DNA of 64,000 nt from Elusimicrobiota bacterium (GCA_016218545.1 JACRDQ010000030.1:256172-320171); one strand, 5' to 3'; positions 4,394 through 21,226 are shown, counted from the first letter of the stretch. The notes: generated by a model not told the origin, from the sequence alone. Numbers and translations are program-made.

Positions 4394-4446
4394 AGGGCGC
4401 CGGTGAAGGGGCCTGGAACGGGTGCATTATATTAATTAGGCCGTGG

Positions 4447-4452
4447 TATAAT
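4447..4452 (+). promoter_or_regulatory. Candidate -10 box (TATAAT) 6 nt upstream of ATG 4459; implies a leaderless transcript
   Basis: Perfect TATAAT sits in the only AT-rich patch of the 4394-4458 intergenic region. No Shine-Dalgarno sequence lies between it and the start codon. Confidence 0.4.
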
Positions 4453-4458
4453 GCCTTC

Positions 4459-5097: not shown

Positions 5098-5157
5098 CTC
5101 CCCTTCGCCAGCGGGATCCTGACGCCCTGCCCCGCGCTCCCGGGTCCCGCGGCCGGA

Positions 5158-6405: not shown

Positions 6406-6602
6406 GGTCCCTCCCGGTCCTCCGCGCCCCAAGACTACCATGATTGGCCGACGGAATCAACCTCGCGCGGGGCCCTGCCCGGGGCGGTTAGGTAGAACTA
6501 CGGAGTGCCCCTTGGGGCTGCCACGGATTGTGTCCCGGCCGGGGGTTGGGGTACCATGAAGTACCGCCCGGCTCCTCGACACGGCCGGGCAGGAGGACCT
6601 CG

Positions 6603-7295
6603 ATGGACTTCTCAAAGCCGCTCTCCATGACCCCTGAAGGACTCGGTCCGCACGCGCACGCCGCCCTCATCCACCTCTCCCGCCAGGAACAGCTCTCCTT
6701 CGTCGTGCCCTATCACCGCTCAGGGCTCGAGCGCGGGGAGAAGTGCGTCTGTGTGGCCGACGCCGACGGCGTCGAGGCCCTGTGGGCCGCCTTGAGGGCC
6801 GCCGGGGTCGACGCGGCCGGGGCCCTGGCCAAGGGGCAGCTCGCGAGCCTCTCCCCCGAGGAGGTCTACCTGAAGGACGGCCGCTTCGACCCTGCCCCGA
6901 CCTTGGCCGTGTTTCGGGGAGCCATCGAGGAGGCTCGCCGGCAGGGGTTCTCCGGGCTGCGGGTTTCCGCGGACATGACCTGGTCCTGCGGCGGGGCCGC
7001 GGCCATGCCGCTCCTGGCGGACTACGAGGCCGAGGTCAACCGCCTCTTCGAGGACCACCCCTTCGGCGCGGTCTGCCAATACGAATACGGCCGCTTCTCC
7101 GCGGACGCCCTGACCAGGGTCGTCTATACCCACCCCTTGGTGATCTTCGGCGGCAGGGTGCACTGGAACCCCTTCTTCATCCCGCCGAACGAGTACCTCA
7201 GGCCGCGGGACCCCGACGCGGAGCTCACGCGCGTGCTGAGCATGCTCTGCCGGGCGTCCTCCATGCGGGAGCGGCCCGTCCCCGTCGTCGTCTGA
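6603..7295 (+). CDS. MEDS-domain protein (putative sensory/regulatory)
   Basis: HAALIHLSRQEQLSFVVPYHRSGLERGEKCVCVAD... and ...GLRVSADMTW...CQY match the MEDS-domain pattern as I know it. AGGAGG lies 7 nt upstream of ATG 6603. Confidence 0.6.
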   Translation: MDFSKPLSMTPEGLGPHAHAALIHLSRQEQLSFVVPYHRSGLERGEKCVCVADADGVEALWAALRAAGVDAAGALAKGQLASLSPEEVYLKDGRFDPAPTLAVFRGAIEEARRQGFSGLRVSADMTWSCGGAAAMPLLADYEAEVNRLFEDHPFGAVCQYEYGRFSADALTRVVYTHPLVIFGGRVHWNPFFIPPNEYLRPRDPDAELTRVLSMLCRASSMRERPVPVVV

Positions 7296-7314
7296 CGGTC
7301 GGGCCCCCCCGCCG

Positions 7315-8064
7315 ATGAGTTATAATGGAAGGGTGACCCCTGGCAAGGCCGACACGAGCGGGCAGGAGGGGATCCGCTATAAGATCCTGACGGTGGATGA
7401 CGACGCCGAGTGCCTCTCCATGCTGCGGGTCTGCCTGAGCCGAGCCGGCCACACGGTGCTGGCCGCGCGCTCCGCCCGCGAAGCCCTGCTGGCCGCTGTG
7501 GACTCCGGTCCGGACCTCGTCATCTCGGACGTCCAGATGGCGGGCGATGACGGCTTCGAGCTCTCGCGCCGCCTCAAGGCCGGCCCCGCGACCGCGCGCA
7601 TCCCCATCATCCTCCTGTCCGGCGCCAGCAAGGATGTCCGGGACCAGCTCGAGGGCTTCGGCCTCGGGGTCGACGACTATCTGATCAAGCCTTTCGAGCC
7701 GGCCCTCCTCCTGGCCAAGGTCCACGCGGTCCTGCGGCGCTACGCCGTCGCCGAGGAGCTGCGGGACGTGGTGAAGTCCAGGGGCGTGGAGCTCGACGTG
7801 CAGGCGCGCACCGTGTCCTGCTCGGGGTCCCCGGTCGCGCTCAGCCGCAAGGAGTTCGACCTGCTCATCACCCTCATCCGCAAGCGGGGCCATGTCTTGA
7901 GCCCGTCGTTCCTCCTGGAATCGGTCTGGAGCCAGGACCTCGCGGAATACAACGATCCGCGCACGGTGAAGGTCCACATCTCGTCCCTGCGAAAGAAGCT
8001 GCCGCCCGCCGTGGCGCGGCGCATCATGACCGTGCCCGGCTCCGGCTACCGCTTCGACGCCTAG
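7315..8064 (+). CDS. OmpR/PhoB-family response regulator (REC + winged-helix)
   Basis: REC domain: ILTVDDDAE...DLVISDVQMAGDDGFEL...PIILLSG...DDYLIKPF. Winged helix: LSRKEFDLLITLIRKRGHVLS...RTVKVHISSLRKKL...GYRF. The true start may be GTG 7333. Confidence 0.9.
   Translation: MSYNGRVTPGKADTSGQEGIRYKILTVDDDAECLSMLRVCLSRAGHTVLAARSAREALLAAVDSGPDLVISDVQMAGDDGFELSRRLKAGPATARIPIILLSGASKDVRDQLEGFGLGVDDYLIKPFEPALLLAKVHAVLRRYAVAEELRDVVKSRGVELDVQARTVSCSGSPVALSRKEFDLLITLIRKRGHVLSPSFLLESVWSQDLAEYNDPRTVKVHISSLRKKLPPAVARRIMTVPGSGYRFDA
7321..7326 (+). promoter_or_regulatory. Candidate -10 box (TATAAT) 6 nt upstream of in-frame GTG 7333
   Basis: A perfect TATAAT lies inside the first codons of track ORF 7315..8064. 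If it is functional, the regulator starts leaderless at GTG 7333. Confidence 0.3.
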
Positions 8065-8170
8065 GCGCCGGCGGGCTTCTGCCGTCGACCGCGTCCCTGG
8101 CTTGACCTTTTTTTTACCGCCATCCGGCACACTATGATTGGGGACGGCGGACGTCGCGCCGTACGATGCC

Positions 8171-10285
8171 ATGGAAGAAGACAAGAACAAGAAACTGGCC
8201 TTACGCATCGCCTCGTTGTTGGACGACGTCTCGGAAACGCCGGAGCCCCGGGGCTCCGGCGCTCCGAGCCAGCCGGTCATCTCGCTGAGACCCGCCGTGG
8301 TGGAGGCCCTCCCCGCGGGCGCGGATCTCGGCTCTCCCGCGGTCCAGGCCCCTTCCGAGGTCCTGGCCTCGCCCGAGGTCGGGTCCGCTGTGATGGATAT
8401 CCTGCCCATCTGGGCTGACCCCGACTTTCCTGCGGAGCAGGCCGTGCCCGCGCCGGCCGAAGGGGCCGCGGCCAGCGCGGCCCCCAAGAGGTCCGTGCTG
8501 GTGGTCGACGATGACCGGGACTACCGGCGGATGGTCCGGGCCCTGCTTTCCGGCAACGGCTATGACGTCTACGAGGCCGAGGATGGGCGCCGGGCTCTGC
8601 AGTTGATCGCGCTGCACCGTCCGGACCTGGTGCTCGTGGACTTCAACATGCCGCGGATGAACGGCTACGAGATGATCCAGGAGGTGCGGAGCCGGTTCGA
8701 GACCCGCGCCATTCCGATCATCATGTTCACCGGCGCTTCCAACCGGAGCCACCTGCGGAGCCTGGGCATGGCTATCTCGGATTTCCTGGAGAAGCCGGTG
8801 TCCAATGTCAGGCTGCTGGAGAGCATCTCCAGCGTGCTCGGCGCGGAGCCGTCTCCCGAGCTCATGGGAGCGGAGTCCGCCCCGTCTCCCCGGATCGTTG
8901 CGCCGCCGAAGGCTCCGGAGACGACGCCGTCCCCGAAAGTCGTCGCAGCCGAAACCATGGCTGAGAAGCCTCCGGCGGCGCCGGCGGAGCCCGCTCCGAC
9001 GGGCCTGCCGCCGGAGCCGCTCGAAGAAGGGGACGAGGACGGGACCGAGCTCCTGCAGATCGAGGAGGAGAAGAAGGAGGAGGAGAGGCAGGAGGTCATC
9101 AGCCTCGAGCACCAGGCCAATGAGTCCCCGGTCATCAGCCAGGTGAACCGCATCCTCGTCAAGGCCGTGGGGATGCGCGCCTCCGACATCCACATCGAGC
9201 CTCAGGAGAAGCACATCACGGTCCGCGTGAGGGTCGACGGCACTCTCAAGCTCCTGTGCACCCTGCCCCTCTCCATCCATCCCCGCCTGAGCGCCCGCAT
9301 CAAGATCATGTCCAGCCTGGTCATCACGGAGAGACGCCTTCCCCAGGACGGGCAGTTCAAGACCCAGATCAGGGGCAGCCGGGTCGAGTTCCGGGTGAGC
9401 ACGCTCCCGTGCCTGCACGGCGAGAAGATCGTCATGCGCATCTTGGGCACCAGCAAGCTCAACGCCGATCTGGCCCAGATGAGCCTCCGTCCCCGCGACC
9501 TGGGCTGCGTGGAGAGGGCGCTCAGGACCCCTCACGGCCTCATCCTCGTGACCGGCCCCACCGGGAGCGGCAAGACCACCACCCTCTACACCATGATCAG
9601 CGTCCTCAACAAGCCCGAAGTCAACATCCTGACCGCCGAGGACCCCGTGGAGTACGAGGTGCCGGACATCTCGCAGGTCAAGGTCCTGCCGTCCATCGGC
9701 CTGACCTTCGAGTCCGCTCTGCGGGCCTTCCTGAGGCAGGACCCGGACATCATGCTCATCGGCGAGATCCGCGACCTGGAGACGGCCAACATCGCGGTCA
9801 AGGCCTCTATCACCGGACACCTGGTCTTCTCCACCCTGCATACCAACGGCGCCGTCGCCACCGTGACGAGGCTCGTCCACATGGGGGTGGCGCCCTATCT
9901 CGTCGCGGCCAGCGTCAAGCTCGTGGCGGCCCAGCGCCTGGTCCGGGACCTCTGCCCGTCCTGCAAGGTCCCCGGCGAGGTCTCCGACGACGAGAAGAAG
10001 TTCCTCGCGGAGGAGGAGGTCGCCAGGCTCCGATCCGTCTGGCGGAGCGCGGGGTGTCCCGCCTGCCATCAGACGGGGTACTCGGGGCGCTCGGCCCTCT
10101 TCGAGATCATGCCCCTGGACTCGGCGGCCATGCGCCAGCTCATCTGCGCCGGAGACAAGGCGGAGGAGCTCAACCGTCTGGCCCTTGCGGAGGGCATGAC
10201 CACCCTGCGGCAAGCCGCCTTGGAGGCGGTGGCGCGGGGCACGACCTCGTTGAGCGAGGCGCTCAAGGTCATGCTGGGGGGATGA
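8171..10285 (+). CDS. Response-regulator receiver domain fused to a GspE/PilB-type secretion/pilus ATPase
   Basis: REC domain (VLVVDDDRDYRRMV...DLVLVDFNMPRMNG...PIIMFTG), then a Pro/Glu-rich linker, then the ATPase core. Core motifs: ASDIHIEP, RRLPQDGQF, Walker A GPTGSGKTTT, DPDIMLIGEIRD, TGHLVFSTLHTN, and the tetracysteine CPSC...CPAC. The canonical T2SSE N-domain is absent. Start uncertain: ATG 8171 or TTG 8138. Confidence 0.85.
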   Translation: MEEDKNKKLALRIASLLDDVSETPEPRGSGAPSQPVISLRPAVVEALPAGADLGSPAVQAPSEVLASPEVGSAVMDILPIWADPDFPAEQAVPAPAEGAAASAAPKRSVLVVDDDRDYRRMVRALLSGNGYDVYEAEDGRRALQLIALHRPDLVLVDFNMPRMNGYEMIQEVRSRFETRAIPIIMFTGASNRSHLRSLGMAISDFLEKPVSNVRLLESISSVLGAEPSPELMGAESAPSPRIVAPPKAPETTPSPKVVAAETMAEKPPAAPAEPAPTGLPPEPLEEGDEDGTELLQIEEEKKEEERQEVISLEHQANESPVISQVNRILVKAVGMRASDIHIEPQEKHITVRVRVDGTLKLLCTLPLSIHPRLSARIKIMSSLVITERRLPQDGQFKTQIRGSRVEFRVSTLPCLHGEKIVMRILGTSKLNADLAQMSLRPRDLGCVERALRTPHGLILVTGPTGSGKTTTLYTMISVLNKPEVNILTAEDPVEYEVPDISQVKVLPSIGLTFESALRAFLRQDPDIMLIGEIRDLETANIAVKASITGHLVFSTLHTNGAVATVTRLVHMGVAPYLVAASVKLVAAQRLVRDLCPSCKVPGEVSDDEKKFLAEEEVARLRSVWRSAGCPACHQTGYSGRSALFEIMPLDSAAMRQLICAGDKAEELNRLALAEGMTTLRQAALEAVARGTTSLSEALKVMLGG

Positions 10286-10286
10286 T

Positions 10287-11048
10287 ATGCCCGGCATGCC
10301 GTTGGTCGAGGCCTTTCGGGGCGACCTCACGACCCAGGAGCTCTGTCGTCGGGGACGCCTCAAGCTCAGGCGTTTCGATCCTCCCGGCTACGCGGAGGCC
10401 GTCGCCTTCTTCTCGGACGCGCGGGAAGGCGATCCGGAGTGCGCGGTCTCCGTGGCCGCCCTGGCCGAAGCCTACTCGCACTGGGGTTTCGCGAGGAAGC
10501 TCATAGGGCAGGAGAGCGAGAGCTATTTCCTCCTGGCTTTCGAGAACGCCTGCTTGGCGCTGGAGATGGCCCCTGAACTCGCCGAGACGCACCGGGCCAT
10601 GGCCGTCTGCCTGAGGCACCGGCCGCGCCGCGGCCCCGAGCAGGGACTCGCCGAGGCGTCGGCAGCGGTGAGGATCAACCCTTACGACGCCATGTCCTGC
10701 TACGAGCTCTGGCGGGCGATGGGCCATGACCCCGAGTCACCCATGATCCACAAGGCCCTGGCGCTCGATCCCGCGCTGCTGACCGTCAACAATGACCTGG
10801 CGGTGTCGCTCATGGAAGCGGAGCGCGCCCAAGAGGCCGGCTTCCATCTGCGCCAGTGCCTGCGGGTCAATTACGAGAACGCGGTGGCCCGATACAACAT
10901 GGTCCTGCTCCTCGCCTGCCGCGGCAAGACCGAGCAGGCGCAGACCCTGCTCGAGGCCTGGCTGAAGGGGCCCGATTTCGAGCCGCTGGTGCGCAGCGGG
11001 AACGCGTCGCTGGCTGACCCGCGCTCCACGGGGGGGATCCTCTTATGA
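10287..11048 (+). CDS. TPR-like helical-repeat protein
   Basis: Helical-repeat composition (AEAVAFFSDAREGDPECAVSVAALAEAY...NAVARYNMVLLLACRGKTEQAQTLLEAWL). It starts 1 nt after the upstream stop and overlaps the downstream start (ATGA). Confidence 0.5.
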   Translation: MPGMPLVEAFRGDLTTQELCRRGRLKLRRFDPPGYAEAVAFFSDAREGDPECAVSVAALAEAYSHWGFARKLIGQESESYFLLAFENACLALEMAPELAETHRAMAVCLRHRPRRGPEQGLAEASAAVRINPYDAMSCYELWRAMGHDPESPMIHKALALDPALLTVNNDLAVSLMEAERAQEAGFHLRQCLRVNYENAVARYNMVLLLACRGKTEQAQTLLEAWLKGPDFEPLVRSGNASLADPRSTGGILL

Positions 11049-13216
11049 ATCGCTTCCAATCTCCGAGCCAAGATGCCGGGGGCAAGACGCCCGATCAACT
11101 CGGCGCAGAGTTCGTCCTCGAGTTGGGAAGGGCCGTCAAGGTCGTGTCCCTGTACTACGCGAACCACCCGACCGCCCTTCAGACCCTCCGGCAAGTCCAC
11201 GCCATCCTGGAGCGGCTGTTGACCGGCCTTTCCGCGGGGCGCGTCACCTTCTCCCTGGCGGCCGGACGCTGGCTCAGGGATGGTTCCCCCCTGCCTGCCC
11301 CGGGTCCGGGCGCGGACTCCCTGCTCGGCGTGTTCGAGACCCACTCCATCGAGAGCCTCACCTTCCTGGGAGGCATCAGGCCCTTCGAGCTGGTCGCTCT
11401 GGCCGAGGTCGCGGCTTCCGTCCCGACGCGTCCGGGCCGCGCCGCGCTCCAGGAGTTCCTCCAGCAGAGAGGAGTGACCCACATCAAAGCGGACATCGAG
11501 CACTATTCCAAGGAGTCGGCTCCGCAGGGCTCGGACGGTTCCCTGGCGTCCGGCTTGCCGGCCGCCTCCTCGTCCGCTGCCAAGCCCCCTGTCGCGCCTT
11601 CCGTTCTCAGGCCTGCCGCGCCTGCGCCCGCTGGCAAGCCTTCAGCGCCTGCGTCCGCTGCCAAGCCCTCCGCGCCTGCGCCCGCTGGCAAGCCTTCGTC
11701 GCCTGCGCCCGCTGCCAAGCCCTCCGCGCCTGCGCCCGCTGGCAAGCCTTCGTCGCCTGCGCCCGCTGCCAAGCCCTCCGCGCCTGCGTCTGCTGCCAAG
11801 CTTGCCGCGCCGTCGCCTTCGGTCGCTCACAGCGTCCCGGCGCAGCCTCCCAAGCCGGCTCTCCCGCCCGTAGAGGTCCGTGCCTCCGCGGCCGGGATGT
11901 GGGGCCCGCCGTCGAGCCCTGCTCCCGACTCTCACGGGGACAGGCTTGGCGTCAGTTTCGGCAGCGTGCTTCGCAAGCTCGTGGAGACCGCGGTGCAGGA
12001 TCCCGACGAGAGGTCCCACATCTACGAGGACGTGGTGGCCATGGTCAAGGAGACCTTGGACCGCCACGTCGACCAGGCGACGCAGGCGCTCTCGGAGGAG
12101 AAGGCGCGCATCGTCAGGCAGGCCGCCAGGACCGAACGGGTGCTCACCACGGTGGCGGACGGAAAGTTCACCGTGGATAAAGAGGGAAGGGTCCTCATGA
12201 TGAACGCCAGCGCCGAGATGATCACGGGAAAGCGTCTGGCCGACCTCGCGGGCAAGCACATCACCGAGGGCGTCAAGGAGGGGGAGCACATGGTCGCGCT
12301 CGCCGAGGACCTGGCGTCCCCGGCCGTGGACGGAGCAGGGGTCACGGTCGTGGCCGATGAGGCGGTGGGCGGCGCCATGCGCCGCTCCCTGGCCCTGGTC
12401 CGAGACGACGCGGGCCGCGTGGTCGGCACGTACGCCTCCCTCCCCGACGCCGCCAAGTTCAAGGAAGCCCAGCGCCTGCAGGAGGAGTTCCTCTCCCGGG
12501 TGACGCACGACCTCCAGTCCCCGCTGGCCGCCATCTGCAGCGGACTCGAGCTCCTCGCGGACAAGGTCAGCTCCGTGGGCGGTCCCGAGACGGCCCAGTA
12601 CATCGACATCTGCATGCGCAACAGCCGTCACCTCTCGGGGATGATCCGCGAGATCCTCGATTTCTCGAAGCTCGACTCGGGCAAGATGACGGTGCACCCG
12701 GCCCCTGTCTCGGCCTCAAGCCTCCTCAAGGAGGCGGTGGAGAGCCTCCAGCCCTGGGCCAAGACCAGGAAGCTCCGCCTGGAAGCGCGTTCTGCCCACG
12801 CGGATTTCTCGGTGCTGGCGGACCAGCCGCGCGTCGTCCAGGTGCTGACCAACCTCATCTCGAACGCGGTCAAGTCCACAAAGGAAGGGGGCTCGATCAC
12901 CGTGGCGGCGGTCCCGGCAGCGGAGGACGGGCAGGGGATCTTCGCGGTGAAGGACACGGGGAGCGGGATCTCCCCTGAGGACCTCGGCCGCATCTTCGAG
13001 AAGTTCGTCCAGGTCGGGGACGGCCGCAGGGACGGGGTGGGACTCGGGCTTTCCATCGTCCAGGAGTTCGTCCGATTGCACGGCGGCGCGGTCTGGGCCG
13101 AGAGCGAGCCCGGCAAGGGTTCGGTGTTCTACTTCACGCTCCCCTTGTCGCAAGCCGGAGTCATCGGCCCCGCGGCGCAGGAGGTCCTGCCGCCTTCGGG
13201 GCGGCCCCGGCACTGA
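11045..13216 (+). CDS. Sensor histidine kinase (cytoplasmic; N-terminal helical domain, PAPAxKPS repeat linker, PAS-like, HisKA, HATPase_c)
   Basis: H-box FLSRVTHDLQSPLAAI, N-box LISNAVKST, G-boxes KDTGSGISPEDL and GVGLGLSIV. No obvious TM segments. Confidence 0.85.
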   Translation: MNRFQSPSQDAGGKTPDQLGAEFVLELGRAVKVVSLYYANHPTALQTLRQVHAILERLLTGLSAGRVTFSLAAGRWLRDGSPLPAPGPGADSLLGVFETHSIESLTFLGGIRPFELVALAEVAASVPTRPGRAALQEFLQQRGVTHIKADIEHYSKESAPQGSDGSLASGLPAASSSAAKPPVAPSVLRPAAPAPAGKPSAPASAAKPSAPAPAGKPSSPAPAAKPSAPAPAGKPSSPAPAAKPSAPASAAKLAAPSPSVAHSVPAQPPKPALPPVEVRASAAGMWGPPSSPAPDSHGDRLGVSFGSVLRKLVETAVQDPDERSHIYEDVVAMVKETLDRHVDQATQALSEEKARIVRQAARTERVLTTVADGKFTVDKEGRVLMMNASAEMITGKRLADLAGKHITEGVKEGEHMVALAEDLASPAVDGAGVTVVADEAVGGAMRRSLALVRDDAGRVVGTYASLPDAAKFKEAQRLQEEFLSRVTHDLQSPLAAICSGLELLADKVSSVGGPETAQYIDICMRNSRHLSGMIREILDFSKLDSGKMTVHPAPVSASSLLKEAVESLQPWAKTRKLRLEARSAHADFSVLADQPRVVQVLTNLISNAVKSTKEGGSITVAAVPAAEDGQGIFAVKDTGSGISPEDLGRIFEKFVQVGDGRRDGVGLGLSIVQEFVRLHGGAVWAESEPGKGSVFYFTLPLSQAGVIGPAAQEVLPPSGRPRH
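11617..11805 (+). repeat. In-frame 27-nt tandem repeat x7 encoding (A/S)PA(P/S)A(G/A)KPS
   Basis: Read directly from the sequence: gcgcctgcgcccgctggcaagccttc(a/g)... alternating with gcgcctgcg(t/c)c(c/t)gctgccaagccctcc. It encodes APAPAGKPS/APASAAKPS/APAPAGKPS/SPAPAAKPS/APAPAGKPS/SPAPAAKPS/APASAAKLA. Confidence 0.85.
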
Positions 13217-13298
13217 CGCTCCCGGCCGGCCCGGCGCGGGCCTCCGGGCGACGTCATTGCGGGGGCGGGAACAAGTATGTTACCTTGAAGCCTCCCGC

Positions 13299-14021
13299 AT
13301 GAGCGATACCTGGTACCAGGAACTGGCCCTCCAGTTCGAGGACGGCACGACGGAGTCCGTTTTCCTGGACATGACCCGCAGCGGCAGGCACAAGCCGCGC
13401 GTGGCGGCCATGCCCGCCCCGTGGACGAAGCTGGAGTTCGAGCGCTGCCCGAGCTGCACGCTTCCTCCGGAGGCGGGCTGGTGCCCGGCCGCCCTCTCGC
13501 TGGAGGAGACCATCTCCAGGCTGAGCCAGCGGACCTCCATCGAGATCGTCACCGCGACCTCGGTGGACAGCGAGAACCGCTGTACGACCGTGAAGTGGCC
13601 CCTCCAGCAGGTGGGAGCGGCCTTCGTCCAGATCGCGGTCTTCTCCAGCGGGTGTCCGGTGGGAGCGCAGTTCCGGTCCATGCTCCAGGACCTGCGGCCC
13701 TTCTCCACGACCAAGGAGGTCGGCCGCCACATCGTGCTCAAGCACCTGCTGCGCCACGCCGGCTCGGTCGATGGGGCCAAGGCCGCGGTCCTCGCGAGGC
13801 TGGGGCCGCTCCGGGAGGTCTTCGGTCAGCTCTTCAAGCGCATCCAGGGCATCCCCCGCGGGGCCTCCCAGGACGCCATCCCGAACTCGATCGTGCACGT
13901 GCACGCCATGACCCAGCATCTGGAGCTCATGGTGGAGGACCTCGTGGAGGACCTCCTCAGGGAGACCCAGGTGCCGCCGACTCCGCAGCCCAAGAAGCCT
14001 CCGCCGGATCCGTCGACTTGA
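13299..14021 (+). CDS. Hypothetical protein (Cys-containing N-terminal half, Pro-rich tail)
   Basis: High-GC3 ORF with no family recognised. Contains CPSC...WCPA and SSGCP. Start placed at ATG 13299 (MSDTWYQE). Its 3' end overlaps the convergent gene by 65 nt. Confidence 0.5.
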   Translation: MSDTWYQELALQFEDGTTESVFLDMTRSGRHKPRVAAMPAPWTKLEFERCPSCTLPPEAGWCPAALSLEETISRLSQRTSIEIVTATSVDSENRCTTVKWPLQQVGAAFVQIAVFSSGCPVGAQFRSMLQDLRPFSTTKEVGRHIVLKHLLRHAGSVDGAKAAVLARLGPLREVFGQLFKRIQGIPRGASQDAIPNSIVHVHAMTQHLELMVEDLVEDLLRETQVPPTPQPKKPPPDPST

Positions 14022-15839: not shown

Positions 15840-16805
15840 GTGCCGACCCGAACGCAGACGACGACCAGCCTCGAGGCTTCCCTGGGACGGGTGCGCGCAG
15901 GCATGCAAGCCCGCGCCAAGCGCATCTCCGGCCGCGTGGGCTCCGCCCTGGCCGAGCACGTGTCCCGGCCGGGCAAGATGCTCCGGGCGAGGTTCGCGGT
16001 CCAGGTCGGGGCCGCCCTCGGGGTGGCGCCGGGAAAGACCGAGACGGTCGCCCGCGCCATGGAGCTGGCGCACAACGCCTCTCTCCTCCACGACGATTGC
16101 GTCGACGACGCCTCCCTGCGTCGGGGCCTGCCCACGCCCAACAGCGTCTACGGCTCGACCGTGGCGCTCCTCCTGGGGGACATCGCCTTCACCCAGTCGC
16201 TCGAGGAGGCGCTCGAACTCGGCCCCAAGGCCGTGGAGCGCCTCGTGAGCGCGGCGCGCGAGATGGCCATCGGCGAGCTCCAGGAGGAGTTCCTGCGCGG
16301 CTCCGTGGACGTGACCCTCGAGTCCTACATGGGGGTCGCGGCGCGCAAGACCGGGGCCCTCTTCGAGTGGGGCGGCTTGACGCTCTCGGACCTAAGCCCC
16401 CTCGAGCACGCGGCCGCCGACCCCGCCAGGCTGGGCTCGGCGCTCGGCATCCTCCTGCAGATGGTCGACGACATCCACGACTACACCCTGACGGACGCCG
16501 TGGCCGGCAAGGAGCGGGCCAAGGACGCCAAGATCGGGCGCGTGACCCTTCCCGGGGTCTTTGCGCTCGCGGACGCCTCCCGCCGGGGGCGCTTCCTCGA
16601 GTTGTGGGCCGCGCTGCGCCGGGACCCGCGCGCCGCCTCGGACCTGGCGCGCTTCCTCGACGAGAGCGGGTCGCTCGACGAGGCCCGCGCCGAGTGCCGC
16701 AAGGTGGTCGGGACCATCCTCGAGCTGACCCGGCGCCTGCCGGTCCGGGGAGAGGTCGACGAGGTGGCCGAGTTCGTCTCGGCCATGGCCGAGAGGGAAT
16801 TCTGA
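15840..16805 (+). CDS. Long-chain trans-polyprenyl diphosphate synthase (IspB-like)
   Basis: First Asp-rich motif LLHDDCVDD...RRG and second motif QMVDDIHDY. The distances of RPGKMLRA and DDxxD from GTG 15840 match full-length IspB-type enzymes. Confidence 0.85.
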   Translation: MPTRTQTTTSLEASLGRVRAGMQARAKRISGRVGSALAEHVSRPGKMLRARFAVQVGAALGVAPGKTETVARAMELAHNASLLHDDCVDDASLRRGLPTPNSVYGSTVALLLGDIAFTQSLEEALELGPKAVERLVSAAREMAIGELQEEFLRGSVDVTLESYMGVAARKTGALFEWGGLTLSDLSPLEHAAADPARLGSALGILLQMVDDIHDYTLTDAVAGKERAKDAKIGRVTLPGVFALADASRRGRFLELWAALRRDPRAASDLARFLDESGSLDEARAECRKVVGTILELTRRLPVRGEVDEVAEFVSAMAEREF

Positions 16806-17254
16806 TGGGCTACGCCGACCTCATCCGGCGGGCCTGGCGGACCGGGCGCTTCGCCGCCTCGGTCCGGTCGTCCGGGAAGAAGGGCGCCGCGGGCGTCCGT
16901 CCCGGGGAGAGCCGCGGCTCCATCCGCGGCGAGATGGAAGAGATCGTCCGCCGCGAGTCCGCCGACGCGCTCGGCTTCCTCGCGCCGCGCGGGGAGGGAA
17001 TCATGAAGCTCGCACCGTTCGTGAAATTCCGTGAAGAGAAGTTCGGCGCGGTCCTGTTCGAGACCCGTTCCGAGAAGGTGTTCACCCTCAATCCGACGGC
17101 CGCGGACGTGGTGCGGGAGCTCCTCGCCGGCGCCTCGGAGGGCGAGATCGGAGAGCGCCTCAAGGGCCGCTACAGCGACCCCTCGGGCAGGCTCGCCGAC
17201 GAGGCCAAGGCCCTCGTGCGCCAGCTCCGCGACAAGGGGCTCATCGCGGACTAG
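16805..17254 (+). CDS. PqqD/MftB-like peptide-binding chaperone (RRE domain) with ~66-aa N-terminal extension
   Basis: The C-terminal 83 aa (MKLAPFVKFREEKFGAVLFETRSEKVFTLNPTAADVVRELLAG..EGEIGERLKGRY..........ALVRQLRDKGLI) fit the PqqD pattern. The upstream 66 codons have very high GC3, and ATG 16805 overlaps the ispB-like stop (ATGA). ATG 17004 is the alternative start. Confidence 0.7.
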   Translation: MGYADLIRRAWRTGRFAASVRSSGKKGAAGVRPGESRGSIRGEMEEIVRRESADALGFLAPRGEGIMKLAPFVKFREEKFGAVLFETRSEKVFTLNPTAADVVRELLAGASEGEIGERLKGRYSDPSGRLADEAKALVRQLRDKGLIAD

Positions 17255-17255
17255 C

Positions 17256-18254
17256 ATGGCTTCGAGGAAGGACGCGGTCAAGGCCGGAGGCCGGGCGTCC
17301 CGGGCGCCCTTGGAAGAGGCGTTGGCGCCCGGGATGCGGGCGCCGCTCTACATCGGCTGGCAGCTGACCAATGCCTGCGACCTGGCGTGCGTCCACTGCA
17401 TCGAGGAGTCCGGGCCGGGCCGCGCCTTCAAGGACGAGCTGACCCGGGAGCAGGCCTTCCGTATCCTCGAGCAGATCAAGACCGAGCAGGTGCCCTACGT
17501 CGCCTTCTCCGGGGGCGAGCCCTTCCTCCACCCGCACTTCCTGGAACTGGCCGCGTTCCTCGGAGACGCCGGGGTGTCGCTCAAGGTCGAGACCAACGGC
17601 CGCCACCTCACCGAGGCGGCCGCCTCGGCGCTGCGGGACCACGGAGTCCGGGCCGTGCAGGTCAGCCTCGACGGCGCCACCCCCGAGGCCTACCGCAAGG
17701 TGCGGCCCTCCGGCGACCACGCCCGGGTCCTGGCAGGCATCCGCCTCCTGCGCTCCAGGGGCGTGGAGGTGGAGGTCAACTTCGTCCCGACGCGGCACAA
17801 CGTCCATGAGATCGGAGCCGCCGTGGACCTGGCCTTCAGCGAGGGGGTCTCCGGCTTCTACACGGGCAGGCTCATCCTGGCCGGCCACGCCGCCAAGGCG
17901 CGGGACCTGGCCCCGACCCAGGAGCAGTACGACGCCTTCTTCGCGTGCCTCAAGGCCAAGGCCCAGGAGTACAAGGGCCGCATGACCGTGCGCTATCACG
18001 AGCTGGGCATCGCGCAGGAGGTCCGCTACCGCATGGCCAACCCCGCGGCCCTCTTCGTCATCCTGCCCGACGGCAGGGTGAAGCTCCTCAACGCCCTGCC
18101 GTTCGTGTGCGGCGACCTGCGCGAGCAGAGCCTCACCGAGGTCTGGAAGGCCTTCCTCGCGGGCTGGAAGTCGCCGCGGGTGGCCGACTTCGTCGGCCGC
18201 CTGGAGGCCGACCCCGGGCTCCTGCAAGGACTGCACCGATGGATCCCTTTGTGA
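17256..18254 (+). CDS. Radical SAM enzyme A, PqqE/MftC-like, degenerate (Cys-less) SPASM-like C-terminus
   Basis: CxxxCxxC cluster motif in WQLTNACDLACVHCIEESGPG, SAM-binding FSGGEP, and KVETNG. C-terminal remnant ILPDGRVKLLNALPFVCGDLREQSLTEVW. Only 2 Cys lie outside the cluster motif. Confidence 0.8.
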   Translation: MASRKDAVKAGGRASRAPLEEALAPGMRAPLYIGWQLTNACDLACVHCIEESGPGRAFKDELTREQAFRILEQIKTEQVPYVAFSGGEPFLHPHFLELAAFLGDAGVSLKVETNGRHLTEAAASALRDHGVRAVQVSLDGATPEAYRKVRPSGDHARVLAGIRLLRSRGVEVEVNFVPTRHNVHEIGAAVDLAFSEGVSGFYTGRLILAGHAAKARDLAPTQEQYDAFFACLKAKAQEYKGRMTVRYHELGIAQEVRYRMANPAALFVILPDGRVKLLNALPFVCGDLREQSLTEVWKAFLAGWKSPRVADFVGRLEADPGLLQGLHRWIPL

Positions 18255-19198
18255 CCGAGTCCGGCGTGGAGACCGACGGCCGCGCCGCTCCGGCCCGCGG
18301 CGGCGGGAGCGGGCGGCCGAATCTGGCCCTGCGGATGGCGTCTGCGGTGCGCTACCGCTTCTTCCTGTACGCGGGACTCCTCCCGTACTTCCTCGGCGCG
18401 GCCTGGGCCCTGCGCATGGAGGGAGCCTTCGCGCCCGGCCGCTTCTGGCTGGGCCTGCTGGGCATCGGCCTGTCCGTCGTGGGTGTTGAGTCCTTCAACG
18501 AGTACTTCGACGCGCGCATGGGCACGGACCGCGTCTTCAACCCTTCCGACGACGAGTACATCCCCGCCTGGATGCTCTGGCTGGGGGTCGCGGCGTTCGC
18601 GGCCGCGGCGTGCGTGGGCATGGCCCTGGCCCATGCCGGAGGCTGGCCCATCCTCCTCTACATGGGGCTGGGCGGCATGGCCGCGGCCTTCTACGTGGGC
18701 CCGCCTTTCCGCTGGGCCTACCTGGGCCTCGGCGAGACCTCGATCGCCTTGTCCTACGGGCCCTGGATGACCCTGGGCAGCATCCACCTGCACACGGGCG
18801 CTTTCTCCTGGCGCGGCCTGGCGGCCGCGCTCGTGCCCGGCTTGCTGGTGGCGTCGCTCGCCGTGGTCAACGAGATCCCGGATTTCCACCAGGACCGGCT
18901 CGTGGGCAAGCGCAACCTCGTGGTGCGGCTGGGCCGCAGGAACGGGGTCGCCCTGTACCTCGCCCTGGCCGGGGCGGGCTTGGCCGCGTGCTTCGCAGGC
19001 GCGGCCGCGGGCTGGTTCCCGGTCGCGTGCGGCCTGGCCGGGGCCCTGGGCCTGCCGTGCTGGTTCTCGAGCGCTCGGACCGCGGTCAAGGCGTGGGACA
19101 CGCCGCGGCTTTTCGTGCCCGCGGTGCGGGACATCGTGCAGTGCTATCTCGTGACCGTGAGCGCCTTCATCATGGCGCTCGCCGTGAGGCTGCCGTGA
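18239..19198 (+). CDS. UbiA-superfamily aromatic prenyltransferase, MenA-like
   Basis: Polytopic membrane protein. First motif NEYFDARMGTD (NxxxDxxxGxD) and second motif NEIPDFHQDRLVGKRNLVVRLG (NxxxDxxxDxxxGKxxLxVRLG) have the same spacing as in MenA. ATG 18239 overlaps rSAM A by 16 nt. Confidence 0.75.
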   Translation: MDPFVTESGVETDGRAAPARGGGSGRPNLALRMASAVRYRFFLYAGLLPYFLGAAWALRMEGAFAPGRFWLGLLGIGLSVVGVESFNEYFDARMGTDRVFNPSDDEYIPAWMLWLGVAAFAAAACVGMALAHAGGWPILLYMGLGGMAAAFYVGPPFRWAYLGLGETSIALSYGPWMTLGSIHLHTGAFSWRGLAAALVPGLLVASLAVVNEIPDFHQDRLVGKRNLVVRLGRRNGVALYLALAGAGLAACFAGAAAGWFPVACGLAGALGLPCWFSSARTAVKAWDTPRLFVPAVRDIVQCYLVTVSAFIMALAVRLP

Positions 19199-20109
19199 GG
19201 ATCGCGTCCTTCGACGTTCCCCTGGCCGCTGCCTGGCGCCTGACCGACCGGTGCGACCTCTCCTGCCGGCACTGCCTCAACGCTTCCGGGCCCAAGGCTG
19301 ACACGGCCGCCGAGCTCTCCCGGCCCGAGGCTCTCAAGCTGGCCCGGAGCATCGGCTCAGCCCAGGTCCCCTACGTCATCCTCTGCGGGGGCGAGCCCAT
19401 GCTGAGCCCCGACTTCTGGCAGGCGGCCGAGACCCTGGGCGAGGCAGGCGCGTGGCTCAAGGTGGAGACGCACGGCCAGAACCTCGGGCGCACCCAGGCG
19501 GAGCGCCTGGCCAAGCTCCCCATCCGCTCGGTCCAGGTCTCTCTCGACGGGGTCACCCAGCAGGCTTACGAGTCCCTGCGGCCAGGGGCCTCCCTGGCCA
19601 AGACCTTGGAAGCTTGCCGCGAGGTGCGGCGTCAAGGCATGCCCCTCGAGATCTCCTTCGTCCCGGTCCAGGGCAACATCCACGAGGCTCCGGCGGTCAT
19701 CGACCTGGCCCTGGACCTGGGCGCCTTCCGGTTCAACACCGGGACCCTCATCAAGCGCGGCCGCGCCGCAGCCGCTTGGAAGAAGCTCCTTCCTGATGCC
19801 GAGTCCATGGCAGGCTTGCTCGCGGTCCTCACCCGTCGCGAAGCCACCCTGGCCGGGAGGCTCGAGCTCTGCTTCAGGCCTTTCAATTTCGAAGACCAGG
19901 TCCGCGCCGAACGCGCGGAGCCCTCAGGCACGCTCACGATCCTGCCTGACGGCAAGGTCCCTGTCTCGGCCTCCTCGGACGTCGTCTGCGCCGACCTTCG
20001 GACGCAGACGGTCAGGGAGGCCTGGCGCGCTTACTTGGCGGCGCACGGCAAGGGGCCACGATCGGAAAGATGGGTCGGCTCGTGTCTTGAGCCGGCTACC
20101 CGGTCCTAG
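19195..20109 (+). CDS. Radical SAM enzyme B, paralog of A and C
   Basis: WRLTDRCDLSCRHCLNASGP, CGGEP, KVETHG, ILPDGKVPV...VVCADLRTQTVREAW. GTG 19195 overlaps the prenyltransferase stop (GTGA). Confidence 0.75.
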   Translation: MRIASFDVPLAAAWRLTDRCDLSCRHCLNASGPKADTAAELSRPEALKLARSIGSAQVPYVILCGGEPMLSPDFWQAAETLGEAGAWLKVETHGQNLGRTQAERLAKLPIRSVQVSLDGVTQQAYESLRPGASLAKTLEACREVRRQGMPLEISFVPVQGNIHEAPAVIDLALDLGAFRFNTGTLIKRGRAAAAWKKLLPDAESMAGLLAVLTRREATLAGRLELCFRPFNFEDQVRAERAEPSGTLTILPDGKVPVSASSDVVCADLRTQTVREAWRAYLAAHGKGPRSERWVGSCLEPATRS

Positions 20110-20129
20110 GCCGGGATTTAGGAGACAGC

Positions 20130-20255
20130 ATGAGAGACAAGAAGAACGTGACGGATGGAAAGGCGAAGGCCGACAAGAAGCCCGTGTGGCAGACCCCTTC
20201 TCTCGAAGAGGTCACCGAGCGTGTCATGGCCCAGCCGTACATCAGGTTCACGTGA
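20130..20255 (+). CDS. 41-aa candidate precursor peptide, PqqA/MftA-like (MRDKKNVTDGKAKADKKPVWQTPSLEEVTERVMAQPYIRFT)
   Basis: Not in the ORF track because it is too short. A GGAGA Shine-Dalgarno lies 4 nt upstream of ATG 20130. About 82% GC3. Stop TGA 20253-20255 overlaps the GTG start of rSAM C (GTGA). It sits between rSAM genes and downstream of a PqqD-like gene. The W-x2-P-x3-E-V...Y-I-x3 spacing matches PqqA as I recall it. Confidence 0.6.
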   Translation: MRDKKNVTDGKAKADKKPVWQTPSLEEVTERVMAQPYIRFT

Positions 20256-21226
20256 CGCACCCGAGGGGGGCGGCGGTAGGAGACTACCGCGCCCCCCTCT
20301 TTGTCGCGTGGCAACTCACCAACCGCTGCCGCGGCCGCTGCCTGGCCTGCTGCGAGGAATCCGGTCCGGGCAAGGGAATCCGCCAAGGCGGGTCCTGGCA
20401 GGCTGAGCTCACCAAGCAGGAAGCCCTCCGCGTCAGCCGCGACATCGCGGCCTCCGGGGTCTCCTACGTGGCGTTCGGCGGGGGGGAACCCATGGAGGTG
20501 CCGCACTTCTGGGACATCCTCTCCATCCTCTCCAAGGGCGGGGTCCGCATCAAGATCGAGACCAACGGCGGGACCATCGGCCGCTCCCAGGCCAAGCGCC
20601 TCTCCGCCTTGGGCGTGTCCTCCATCCAGATCAGCCTCGACGGCCCCACGGCCCGCGAGCACGAGGCCTTGAGGCCCGGCTCGAGCTTCAACAAAGCGGT
20701 CCGGGCGGTCCGCTGTCTGGCTGAGGAAGGGCTCGGGCCTGAGGTCGTGTTCATCCCCATGAAGAGGAACGTGGGCCAGGCCGTCAAGGTCTACCGATTG
20801 GCGGCCAGTCTCGGAGCCAGGGTGCTTGCGACCGGCCCTCTCATGCGCCTGGGACGCGCCGGAGCAGCATGGAAGGAACTCGCCCCGTCGGCCGGGCGAT
20901 GGCGGACCGCGGTCCGGGCGCTCAAGGCCGAGGCCGCCCGTGCCAAGGCAGGGCCCAAGCTCTCCATCTATCCCTGGGGCATCCAGAGGGAGATCGAGAC
21001 CAGGCTCGAGCATCCCCAGGCCATGGTCCTCGTGGTGCCTGACGGCAAGGTCAAGCTCCTCAATGCCCTCCCTTTTGCTCCAGGCGACCTGCGGCGACAC
21101 TCCCTGGCCCAGGCCTGGACGCGCTGCCTCGGAGCTTGGCGCGACCCCAAGGTGCGGGCTTTCTGCCGCAAGGCCGTGAAGGACCCCGGGCTCCTGGCGC
21201 ACGCCAACGAATGCTGGCCCGCCTAA
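20252..21226 (+). CDS. Radical SAM enzyme C, paralog of A and B
   Basis: WQLTNRCRGRCLACCEESGPG, FGGGEP, KIETNG, VVPDGKVKLLNALPFAPGDLRRHSLAQAW. There is no in-frame ATG upstream of the motif, so the start is placed at GTG 20252. Confidence 0.75.
   Translation: MTHPRGAAVGDYRAPLFVAWQLTNRCRGRCLACCEESGPGKGIRQGGSWQAELTKQEALRVSRDIAASGVSYVAFGGGEPMEVPHFWDILSILSKGGVRIKIETNGGTIGRSQAKRLSALGVSSIQISLDGPTAREHEALRPGSSFNKAVRAVRCLAEEGLGPEVVFIPMKRNVGQAVKVYRLAASLGARVLATGPLMRLGRAGAAWKELAPSAGRWRTAVRALKAEAARAKAGPKLSIYPWGIQREIETRLEHPQAMVLVVPDGKVKLLNALPFAPGDLRRHSLAQAWTRCLGAWRDPKVRAFCRKAVKDPGLLAHANECWPA

Follow-up and report, generated by a model that had tools for sequence, protein, structure and literature searches.

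Three PqqE/MftC-like radical SAM paralogs without auxiliary-cluster cysteines in a gene cassette with a short peptide and a UbiA-type prenyltransferase

A locus of an Elusimicrobiota bacterium (GCA_016218545.1) encodes three paralogous radical SAM (rSAM) enzymes, here called A, B, and C, that resemble PqqE and MftC but seem to have lost the cysteines that hold auxiliary clusters in these enzymes. This raises the question of whether such proteins are still enzymes and, if so, what they act on and to what end. We analysed a window of 64,000 nucleotides (JACRDQ010000030.1:256172-320171), in which the 3971-base span of the three rSAMs also holds a UbiA-family gene and a gene for a 41-aa peptide. 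The gene order, which is strictly syntenic, is PqqD–rSAM A–UbiA/MenA-like prenyltransferase–rSAM B–41-aa peptide–rSAM C, and in the window a long-chain-type polyprenyl synthase gene lies upstream of this six-gene cassette:

15840..16805, + strand: polyprenyl diphosphate synthase (trans-IPPS, IspB-like), Pfam polyprenyl_synt 139 bits
16805..17254 (core domain 17003-17254), + strand: PqqD-family peptide chaperone (RRE), Pfam PqqD
17256-18254, + strand: rSAM A, 332 aa, with CDLACVHC, GGEP, a degenerate SPASM/twitch C-terminus, and Cys285
18239-19198, + strand: UbiA-superfamily membrane prenyltransferase, MenA-like, Pfam UbiA, with two Asp-rich motifs
19195-20109, + strand: rSAM B, 304 aa, with CDLSCRHC, GGEP, Cys265 (VVCADLR), and Cys141
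20130-20255, + strand: 41-aa precursor peptide MRDKKNVTDGKAKADKKPVWQTPSLEEVTERVMAQPYIRFT, with WxxPxL in its leader and an invariant core at the C-terminus
20252-21226, + strand: rSAM C, 324 aa, with CRGRCLAC, GGEP, and a twitch-like fold as in A and B

The GTG start codons of rSAM B and rSAM C overlap the stop codons of the UbiA and peptide genes, respectively, and the ATG of the peptide gene is preceded on its 5′ side by GGAG. Such gene overlaps suggest that the genes of the cassette may be translationally coupled. No protease, exporter/transporter, immunity, or regulator gene was found in the cassette loci that we inspected, and in the window the cassette is surrounded by housekeeping genes. 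The window contains a fourth rSAM gene (34751-35857), which encodes HemW and is unrelated to A, B, and C.

All three paralogs described in an earlier note on this DNA are real: they are encoded by + strand open reading frames and exceed the cutoff of the Pfam Radical_SAM model (PF04055, 29.5 bits) with 92.3 bits for A, 71.0 for B, and 76.5 for C. A shares 39% identity with B and 38% with C. Their PqqE/MftC-like identity also stands, as MftC is the top NCBIfam match of each, though far under the cutoff. Against the MftC model TIGR03962 (cutoff 265), A, B, and C score 128.0, 99.0, and 108.3 bits, and against the PqqE model TIGR02109 (cutoff 381) they score 83.0, 86.7, and 54.3 bits. The quoted motifs CDLACVHC, CDLSCRHC, CRGRCLAC, and GGEP are in place, but B reads KVETHG and not ETNG. 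No NCBIfam model reaches its cutoff, and we found no known Cys-poor family with a non-peptide substrate, which the earlier note had allowed for, to which the three could belong. HMM scores and context ruled out the MqnC/MqnE-type menaquinone rSAMs, HpnH, NirJ/AhbC/AhbD, and GDGT-MAS-like lipid enzymes as the identity of A, B, and C. In three phyla, the cassette slot of each paralog is filled by orthologs of that paralog, a pattern that is not due to chance. Across phyla, each paralog shares 47-80% identity with its orthologs and is under strong purifying selection. Among orthologs with N-terminal coverage, the CxxxCxxC motif is intact in 37/37 for A, 57/57 for B, and 99/99 for C (193/193 overall), and GGE is present in 188 of the 193.

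In SPASM domains, a seven-Cys motif, CX9-15GX4C-gap-CX2CX5CX3C-gap-C, ligates two auxiliary clusters (PMC6231123). We aligned A, B, and C with MftC from Thermomicrobium roseum, PqqE from Sinorhizobium meliloti, and three canonical SPASM enzymes, and found that the seven canonical positions are occupied by residues other than Cys or fall inside a deletion of around 30 residues, the whole CX2CX5CX3C loop being deleted. This is the alignment that the earlier note had called for, and with every canonical SPASM Cys substituted or deleted, it confirms the degenerate C-termini. The absence of CX2CX5CX3C was likewise reproduced, both in the three proteins and in their orthologs (0/205), and the “2-5” scattered Cys outside the SAM cluster were counted as 2 in A and 5 each in B and C. 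Neither the seven-Cys SPASM arrangement nor that of the twitch domain (one cluster bound by three or four Cys, of which one follows the hairpin and two follow alpha2′) was found in A, B, or C. The retained C-terminal elements are a PDGxV hairpin, a G[DN][LV]R..S[LF].E[IV]W helix, and a “DP” turn; the hairpin motif noted earlier is kept, except that B reads ADLR and not GDLR and that C opens with VVPDG. At default thresholds, Pfam SPASM did not match the A, B, or C proteins. When PF13186 (cutoff 21.5 bits) was applied to isolated C-termini, the scores were 17.8 bits for A (E 0.004) and 13.0 bits for B (E 0.13), C gave no match, and the residual matches spanned only model positions 4-46 of 67, that is, the hairpin-helix part.

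The earlier claim that no Cys is common to all three paralogs stands, but it overlooked one aligned Cys shared by A and B. This residue, which lies just before G/A-D-L and borders what was once the SPASM hairpin (C285 of A aligned with C265 of B), is invariant in A (66/66, and 35/35 in a second set), is present in 68/69 sequences of B, and is strictly conserved in a single-copy rSAM type as well, while the same column in C holds Pro in 63/75 and Cys in only 2/75. Within the C-terminal 100 residues, there is at most one conserved Cys in A and B and none in C. An invariant Cys141 is specific to B, A has the invariant His residues H248 and H327, and the candidate His are not shared between paralogs. 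It is reasonable to infer that electron handling in A, B, and C may differ from that in PqqE and MftC.

The fold has nevertheless been kept. Confident AlphaFold2 models of A and C show one common topology, with a beta-hairpin and helix alpha2′ packed behind the partial (beta/alpha)6 barrel as in SPASM/twitch proteins, and the nearest structures are SkfB, SuiB, PqqE, BlsE, and viperin. In a phylogenetic tree, A, B, C, and the single-copy type form four clades with 100/100 bootstrap each, and together they form a 100/100 clade that excludes MftC, PqqE, and canonical SPASM enzymes. This tree is consistent with a single cluster loss followed by duplication.

The peptide, which the earlier note took as the substrate, and a PqqD partner were found beside the rSAMs at all loci, the peptide being conserved. 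The arrangement typical of RRE-type RiPP systems, a PqqD protein beside a short precursor with a conserved leader and core, is present at the gene level. The PqqD protein scores 45.8 bits against Pfam PqqD (cutoff 23.4) and matches the NCBIfam lasso PqqD (49.5 bits) and MftB (24.6 bits) models, both below cutoff. In Elusimicrobia it carries a conserved in-frame N-terminal extension of around 65 aa that runs from an ATG overlapping the synthase stop; this extension is kept in 9 loci and is stop-free up to the PqqD domain. The C-terminal core of the peptide, VMAQPYIRFT, is invariant; among 120 metagenome loci this invariance was built into the search pattern, but the core is also identical in 13 loci found without using the peptide, across three phyla. 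The leader has W-17 in 102/103 sequences, P-14 in 101/103, and L/M/I-12 in 101/103. It resembles that of PqqA (WQKPKLEDVS versus WHKPKFIEVS in S. meliloti), with a Trp-to-Tyr spacing of 17 in both and a core conserved like that of a cofactor precursor. Where PqqA has Glu, however, the peptide has Met (M-A-Q-P-Y), without E-X3-Y, and the PqqA model TIGR02107 did not match it, whereas a genuine PqqA scores 43.5 bits. The peptide has no NCBIfam or Pfam family, and a homology search with its 41 aa returned only 12 proteins, as open reading frames that short are seldom called. Weak similarity of the leader to lasso-peptide leaders was also observed. Ten invariant core residues would seem to be more than a precursor of Tyr alone needs.

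The earlier note overlooked the UbiA gene between A and B as well as the polyprenyl synthase upstream, and their presence changes the likeliest product of the system. The UbiA protein scores 56.6 bits against Pfam UbiA (PF01040, cutoff 34.2), and both Asp-rich motifs, NEYFDARMGTD and DFHQDRLVGKRN, are found in its translation. Its top NCBIfam match is DHNA polyprenyltransferase (102.3 bits, cutoff 264); against TIGR00751 it scores 63.3 bits (cutoff 102), a second value against a MenA cutoff of 102 being 80, and for the Planctomycetota copy a MenA-type model gives 115.7 bits (cutoff 277). The synthase best matches the solanesyl, heptaprenyl, and octaprenyl synthases of NCBIfam, all below cutoff, and the residues ahead of its first DDxxD are small (A-S-L-L-H-DDCVDD), which we take to indicate a long-chain synthase (FARM-upstream). 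The UbiA gene lies between A and B in every three-rSAM locus. The synthase gene precedes the cassette in 8 loci of the Elusimicrobia type, and in Planctomycetota loci it follows UbiA.

Both Elusimicrobiota and members of the Alpha- and Betaproteobacteria carry the cassette; it is also present on at least 120 metagenome contigs and is very frequent in soil metagenomes. The order PqqD-A-UbiA-B-peptide-C is unchanged in Elusimicrobiota, Acetobacteraceae, Burkholderiales MAGs, and dozens of metagenome contigs. In PLSDB plasmids, there was no close homolog; the best matches (MftC, PqqE, NirJ, and canonical SPASM enzymes, at most 38% identity) served only as comparators. Planctomycetota have a variant, peptide-PqqD-rSAM-UbiA-IspB, with one rSAM and the same core peptide, which sits inside Na+-NQR operons, between nqrE and nqrF, or directly behind nqrA-F. 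An nqr gene lies at most 400 nt upstream of 8/22 one-rSAM loci versus 1/97 three-rSAM loci, but the linkage occurs in only one lineage, Phycisphaerae-like Planctomycetota, so those loci are not independent. Downstream of the one-rSAM variant are genes for NrfD-type molybdoenzymes or for NapC/NirT and multihaem cytochromes. Three-rSAM loci lie among housekeeping genes, and their neighbours vary. In a neighbour clustering with a GC3 filter against spurious open reading frames in high-GC DNA, NapC/NirT-like cytochromes, RatA/COQ10-like SRPBCC proteins, and a DsrMK-like protein recurred, but most three-rSAM loci have no respiratory neighbours.

We consider it probable, on sequence grounds, that A, B, and C are all catalytically competent rSAM peptide maturases with a single cluster each, in a cassette pathway to a prenylated, Tyr-derived membrane product. 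One SPASM-type (PqqE/MftC-like) ancestor would have lost both auxiliary-cluster sites before triplicating. Homology and motif spacing suggest that the PqqD-like chaperone binds the WxxPxL leader and offers the core VMAQPYIRFT to the enzymes, each of which would use its CxxxCxxC [4Fe-4S] cluster and SAM to take a hydrogen atom from the core. This abstraction would most likely take place at the Tyr or close to it, the Tyr matching exactly the position of the cross-linked Tyr in PqqA. As auxiliary clusters are absent, the substrate radical would probably be resolved without a protein-internal electron relay. The outcome could, for instance, be redox-neutral or reductive, the electron might go back to the SAM cluster, or the invariant Cys of A and B might donate a hydrogen atom. 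From family chemistry, the MenA-like UbiA protein would add a polyprenyl chain supplied by the adjacent IspB-like synthase, most plausibly to the Tyr-derived phenolic ring, yielding a membrane-anchored, peptide-derived molecule. With no protease or exporter gene in the cassette, this molecule may be a small cofactor that is set free or may retain the whole peptide. The weakest step is the function of this product, for which the genomic context tentatively suggests the role of a quinone-like electron carrier or of a lipid-bound redox cofactor. The hetero-oligomer considered in the earlier note may also form, in that the apparent translational coupling and the one-rSAM variant with an identical core peptide make subfunctionalised partners plausible.

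Several other explanations could be considered. An ordinary secondary-metabolite RiPP system, which would make a prenylated cross-linked lipopeptide acting as an antibiotic or signal outside core redox metabolism, would share the architecture seen here (precursor, PqqD-type RRE, and SkfB/SuiB-like rSAMs), and both the weak likeness of the leader to lasso-peptide leaders and the lack of respiratory neighbours at most three-rSAM loci would suit it. Nevertheless, the cores of bioactive RiPPs typically vary, unlike those of cofactor precursors such as PqqA and MftA, and an identical core in three phyla, a cassette without transporter, protease, immunity, or regulator gene, and the embedding of the Planctomycetota version in nqr operons make such a system unlikely. 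It is quite unlikely that the rSAMs act instead on a small molecule or lipid (a prenylated aromatic head group or an isoprenoid chain) in a new quinone or isoprenoid-lipid pathway, with the peptide and PqqD as scaffold, carrier, or regulator. Proteins of the PqqD family are known to chaperone peptides, Trp and Tyr are spaced as in PqqA, whose Tyr is an rSAM target, the nearest structures are the RiPP maturases SkfB and SuiB, and the last ten residues are so extremely conserved that direct recognition by an enzyme is implied.

The enzymes themselves could also be read differently. PqqE (Asp), LipA (Ser), and BioB (Arg) provide precedents for cluster ligands other than Cys (PMC6231123), and an auxiliary cluster might be kept by ligands such as the Cys conserved in A and B plus His or Asp, or might bridge the subunits of an A-B(-C) hetero-oligomer. 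The single strictly conserved Cys of A, B, and the single-copy type at the former hairpin edge, H248 and H327 of A, and the coupling of the genes would all accommodate this arrangement, but we regard it as improbable, since there is just one conserved Cys per protein and none in C, the CX2CX5CX3C loop is wholly deleted, the candidate His differ between paralogs, and the single-copy enzyme occurs without partner rSAMs. The pseudo-enzyme scaffolding suggested in the earlier note, in which one or two paralogs would be inactive and hold the peptide or the active paralog, has parallels in known pseudo-SAM/SPASM families, of which TIGR04347 is among the weak matches, and the one-rSAM variant indicates that a single enzyme can suffice for the same core. 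With the SAM-cluster motif intact in all orthologs of every paralog, GGE in nearly all, and strong purifying selection on each, however, this suggestion fares poorly, and inactive scaffolds are very improbable.

As single-cluster peptide maturases, A, B, and C can be compared with several known systems. The PqqA-PqqD-PqqE system shares a PqqD-family chaperone and a PqqE-like rSAM core, but PqqE has two auxiliary clusters, for which A, B, and C lack the SPASM cysteines, and the cassette has no pqqB or pqqC while having a UbiA prenyltransferase and three rSAM paralogs. Mycofactocin biosynthesis offers the best-scoring curated family (MftC), and it likewise involves a PqqD-like protein, MftB, and a conserved precursor of small size; in contrast, the peptide ends in IRFT, not in GVY as MftA does, no mftD, mftE, or mftF is nearby, and the two auxiliary clusters that MftC uses (PMC10114670) have no counterpart in A, B, or C. 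SkfB, a RiPP sactisynthase (PDB 6EFN), holds the auxiliary cluster of its twitch domain with Cys351, Cys385, and Cys387 (PMC6231123), whereas A, B, and C have at most one conserved Cys, at another position, and their RRE is a separate PqqD protein rather than a fused domain. BlsE, DesII, and viperin are cluster-less relatives with the SPASM/twitch fold, but the sequence similarity is confined to the rSAM core, and they act on nucleotides or sugars without a peptide, RRE, or prenyltransferase partner. The UbiA-superfamily enzyme, most like DHNA polyprenyltransferases, is paired with a trans-polyprenyl synthase, the pairing behind the side chains of menaquinone and ubiquinone; however, its scores are far under MenA cutoffs and no other men, mqn, or ubi genes adjoin. 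To our knowledge, no quinone pathway couples a UbiA-type enzyme to a ribosomal peptide and rSAMs.

For the rSAMs, NCBIfam and Pfam gave only generic or sub-cutoff matches, and we found no description of the cassette or the peptide motif in the literature. One candidate, PMC12423496, was rejected because it concerns ordinary PQQ and ubiquinone genes only. With neither a curated family nor a paper found, the cassette is previously undescribed. It reveals a whole clade of putative RRE-dependent, PqqE/MftC-like peptide maturases without both auxiliary clusters that retain a twitch-like fold. Given that the role of auxiliary clusters in RiPP chemistry is still unsettled (PMC10114670), this clade may serve as a natural test of what these clusters do, and the minimal four- or five-gene version would be a small system for heterologous reconstitution. 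The cassette also joins a ribosomal peptide to quinone-type prenylation machinery and, in one phylum, lies within a quinone-reductase operon. Should the product indeed be lipid-anchored and redox-active, it would represent a new kind of membrane electron carrier and a new biosynthetic logic. A bolder and rather doubtful extension is that the cassette may encode a third route to a peptide-derived redox cofactor, besides those to PQQ and mycofactocin, and the first whose product bears a polyprenyl tail. In Planctomycetota, Elusimicrobiota, and soil Proteobacteria, this product would be a quinone-like membrane electron carrier that serves Na+-NQR and further respiratory enzymes that depend on quinol.

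The three radical SAM (rSAM) paralogs, A, B and C, belong to a compact plus-strand operon in a window of about 70% G+C, in which genes were called from an ORF listing and by inspection of start codons:

15840-16805, plus strand, polyprenyl synthase (ORF listing)
17003-17254, plus strand, PqqD-family protein, start probably at 16805 (ORF listing)
17256-18254, plus strand, rSAM A (ORF listing)
18239-19198, plus strand, UbiA-family prenyltransferase (ORF listing)
19195-20109, plus strand, rSAM B, overlapping the UbiA stop via GTGA
20130-20255, plus strand, 41-aa ORF, with GGAG ahead of its ATG
20252-21226, plus strand, rSAM C, overlapping the peptide stop via GTGA

Genes for a GHL6-like protein, PurH and LigA converge toward this operon from downstream, and those upstream of it, encoding a solute-binding protein, a DUF6901 protein, a histidine kinase and a T2SSE ATPase, are unrelated. 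The DUF6901 protein (13257-14021, 61 bits) is of unknown function, and the end of its gene overlaps the convergent gene for the solute-binding protein. At 8138-10285, a response-regulator receiver domain is fused N-terminally to a T2SSE-type secretion ATPase, and the next genes encode a TPR protein and a PAS histidine kinase. The remainder of the window has housekeeping content and no respiratory genes; a fourth rSAM gene (34751-35857), located just 5′ of the gene for valyl-tRNA synthetase, encodes the haem chaperone HemW (TIGR00539, 245.5 bits against a cutoff of 205.4) and has no relation to the cassette.

In A, B and C, the SAM-cluster motifs are intact, and the ligands of the auxiliary clusters are absent. 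All three proteins matched Pfam Radical_SAM, and none matched Pfam SPASM at default thresholds. A shares 39% identity with B and 38% with C, and the only cysteines invariant in a comparison of the three paralogs are those of CxxxCxxC. As SPASM comparators, we used annotated plasmid records of MftC from Thermomicrobium roseum, PqqE from Sinorhizobium meliloti and three canonical SPASM rSAMs. In the joint alignment, Met, Ala or Glu occupies the position of the first SPASM Cys and Leu or Val that of the Gx4C Cys, a deletion of about 30 residues covers the CX2CX5CX3C loop, and DPGL or EPAT stands in place of the final "DPxC", while the PDGxV hairpin, the G[DN][LV]R..S[LF].E[IV]W helix and the DP turn are kept. 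When isolated C-termini were compared with Pfam SPASM, A (17.8 bits, E 0.004) and B (E 0.13) gave sub-threshold matches to the hairpin-helix part only, and C gave no match. Given this alignment with real SPASM enzymes and these sub-threshold matches, the description of a SPASM remnant without ligands in the earlier note was correct.

We extended the comparison to ortholog sets from nine further loci in three phyla and from metagenome contigs. CxxxCxxC is intact in every ortholog with N-terminal coverage (A 37/37, B 57/57, C 99/99, single-copy type 16/16), and CX2CX5CX3C was found in none of the 42 A, 73 B, 78 C and 12 single-copy sequences. The last 100 residues of the orthologs contain a mean of 1.2 to 2.3 cysteines. 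The earlier note overlooked a conserved non-canonical Cys (C285 in A). This residue, ahead of [GA]-D-[LV], is present in 35/35 A sequences (66/66 in another set), 68 of 69 B sequences and 10/10 of the single-copy type, whereas C has Cys at this position in only 2 of 75 sequences and Pro in 63. B has an additional invariant Cys of its own. In a 1-Mb ENA contig (L013), the C-type gene as called (11176-12021) encodes only 281 aa, with the CxxxCxxC-coding region out of frame, which may reflect a frameshift or an assembly error and not a true pseudogene.

AlphaFold2 models of A (pLDDT 87.3, pTM 0.85) and C (pLDDT 91.0, pTM 0.89) predict a twitch-like fold for both, with a common topology of partial (beta/alpha)6 barrel, strand, helix, beta-hairpin and C-terminal helices; Foldseek was concordant for A. 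The same fold is able to work on the SAM cluster alone in BlsE, DesII and viperin. SkfB, a RiPP maturase, binds a cluster in its twitch domain via Cys351, Cys385 and Cys387 (PMC6231123), none of which has a counterpart in A, B or C.

Every paralog is nearest to the gene at the equal cassette position in other phyla, with identities of 51-80% for A, 48-68% for B and 47-78% for C, against 31-44% across paralogs. Neighbour joining placed A, B, C and T2, the single-copy rSAM type of a Planctomycetota cassette variant, each in a monophyletic group of its own (100/100 bootstraps), and all four in one 100/100 clade separate from MftC, PqqE and the canonical SPASM enzymes. The simplest reading of these sequences would be that the auxiliary sites were lost once and that duplication followed. 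The cassette itself is fixed, and in it the rSAMs are accompanied by an RRE, a prenyltransferase and a conserved peptide. The same gene order (PqqD, A, UbiA, B, peptide, C) recurs in Elusimicrobia MAGs (L001-L006), an Acetobacteraceae MAG (L010, L011), a Burkholderiales MAG (L012) and L013. The A family is large: of the candidates scored, 1300 proteins reached E <= 1e-10, and identity was 50% or higher in each of the best 120. Steroidobacteraceae appears among the names of family members.

In 13/13 loci ascertained by enzyme homology, VMAQPYIRFT forms the C-terminus of the peptide. A back-translated MAQPYIRFT-stop pattern found at least 120 metagenome contigs, chiefly from soil and rhizosphere, in which the core is invariant by construction of the pattern. 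Leader positions outside the pattern are also conserved: W-17 (102/103), P-14 (101/103), L/M/I-12 (101/103), V-9 (103/103) and S/T-8 (103/103). The leader of S. meliloti PqqA (WHKPKFIEVS) is akin to that of the peptide (WQKPKLEDVS; BLASTP E 6e-4 for that pair), and the Trp-to-Tyr distance is 17 in both, but PqqA has Glu where the 41-aa peptide has Met, and the PqqA model gave no match to the peptide. Lasso leaders carry a YxxPxL motif that is bound by PqqD-like RREs. The WxxPxL of the peptide recalls this motif, and the match of the peptide to a lasso leader model was non-significant. In loci of the Elusimicrobia type, the stretch from the synthase to the PqqD domain (16805-17002 in the window, roughly 65 codons) has no stop in the PqqD frame and encodes a conserved N-terminal extension (MGYxxLIRxAWRTGxF ... 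IRGEMEEIVRRE) whose ATG overlaps the synthase stop, so that the chaperone of the window is probably 149 aa long.

About one-sixth of the metagenome loci, among the matches listed, encode, in this order, the peptide, PqqD, a single rSAM (T2), UbiA and often IspB, and T2 homologs bear names of Planctomycetota, Phycisphaerales or Sedimentisphaerales. Assemblies that carry this minimal Planctomycetota cassette, IspB included, are for example GCA_019456255.1 and GCA_046760285.1. Its VMAQPYIRFT core is identical to that of the window peptide, and it falls within these spans of three loci:

L114 (oriented), 1573-8001
L139, 3239-12943
L140, 1895-10996

The cassette lies immediately 3′ of nqrA-F in two MAGs (L139, L140) and between nqrE and nqrF in L114, L097 and L109, with a gene pair for a response regulator and a histidine kinase after it. 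NqrB and NqrD pass the NCBIfam cutoffs, and NqrC, NqrE and NqrF fall slightly under them. The end of an nqr gene falls in the 400 nt upstream of the cassette in 8/22 T2 loci, compared with 1/97 three-rSAM loci. Downstream of the cassette, L139 encodes NrfD, a 4Fe-4S subunit and a molybdopterin oxidoreductase, and L140 encodes a NapC/NirT-type cytochrome and multihaem cytochromes; in L081, a NapC/NirT-type cytochrome gene lies upstream. The NqrA-like subunit (L139 3239-4651, L140 1895-3304) has a C-terminal RnfC/RsxC-like ferredoxin segment with two [4Fe-4S] motifs (RsxC 112 bits, residues 375-456); far under the NqrA cutoffs, it looks like an NQR/RNF intermediate form.

Recurrent neighbours of three-rSAM cassettes include NapC/NirT-like tetrahaem cytochromes (seven loci), RatA/COQ10-like SRPBCC proteins (five metagenome loci, L010 and L013), a small cytochrome c (four loci) and a DsrMK-like protein (L012). 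In the alphaproteobacterial L010 (12100-13379) and L013 (12058-13337), as in the five metagenome loci, the SRPBCC gene follows C, and beyond it in L010 and L013 lies a convergent, weakly UbiG/BchM-like class I methyltransferase. The recurrent neighbours all handle quinones or quinols; their linkage to the cassette is lineage-limited and short of proof. A plasmid of Indioceanicola profundi (NZ_CP030128.1, L014 2226-7050) carries a different multi-rSAM RiPP-like cluster, with a 49-aa Cys-rich ORF, two canonical SPASM rSAMs, a PqqD protein and a 482-aa rSAM, adjoined by TIR and SIR2 genes.

Although the earlier observation was confirmed, its interpretation was supported only in part. Pseudo-enzyme scaffolding, offered as one explanation for three enzymes on one peptide, is unlikely because A, B and C all retain their catalytic motifs. 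Since a single T2 serves the same core as A, B and C together, the trio is likely a subfunctionalised set, acting as a hetero-oligomer or sequentially. A low-GC metagenome locus (L130, oriented, 10313-13925) encodes IspB, the peptide and two tandem T2-type rSAMs; thus, the number of cluster-less rSAMs varies (one, two or three) with the same core peptide. The RRE would present the peptide core to the rSAM enzymes, and the core Tyr, positioned as in PqqA, may be a target. A role in electron shuttling is ascribed to the auxiliary clusters of MftC and SuiB (PMC10114670). Where such clusters are absent, the substrate radical would be resolved by another route: the outcome could be redox-neutral or reductive, the electron could go back to the SAM cluster, or the Cys conserved in A, B and T2 could donate a hydrogen atom.

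The UbiA-family protein has both Asp-rich motifs and is nearest to DHNA polyprenyltransferase, with scores far under the cutoffs. In the upstream synthase, small residues precede the first DDxxD, which we take to indicate a long-chain enzyme such as IspB; a polyprenyl synthase gene occurs with the cassette in Elusimicrobia and Planctomycetota and not in Proteobacteria. The UbiA enzyme would prenylate a Tyr-derived ring, giving a membrane-bound and probably redox-active product. No curated model is specific to any cassette component, and we found no description of the peptide or the gene combination in the non-subscription literature searched. We class the cassette as a peptide pathway of the PQQ/mycofactocin type in which the rSAMs are cluster-less and the prenyltransferase is of the quinone type. 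The larger finding is the cassette itself and its suggested link to quinone-dependent respiration.
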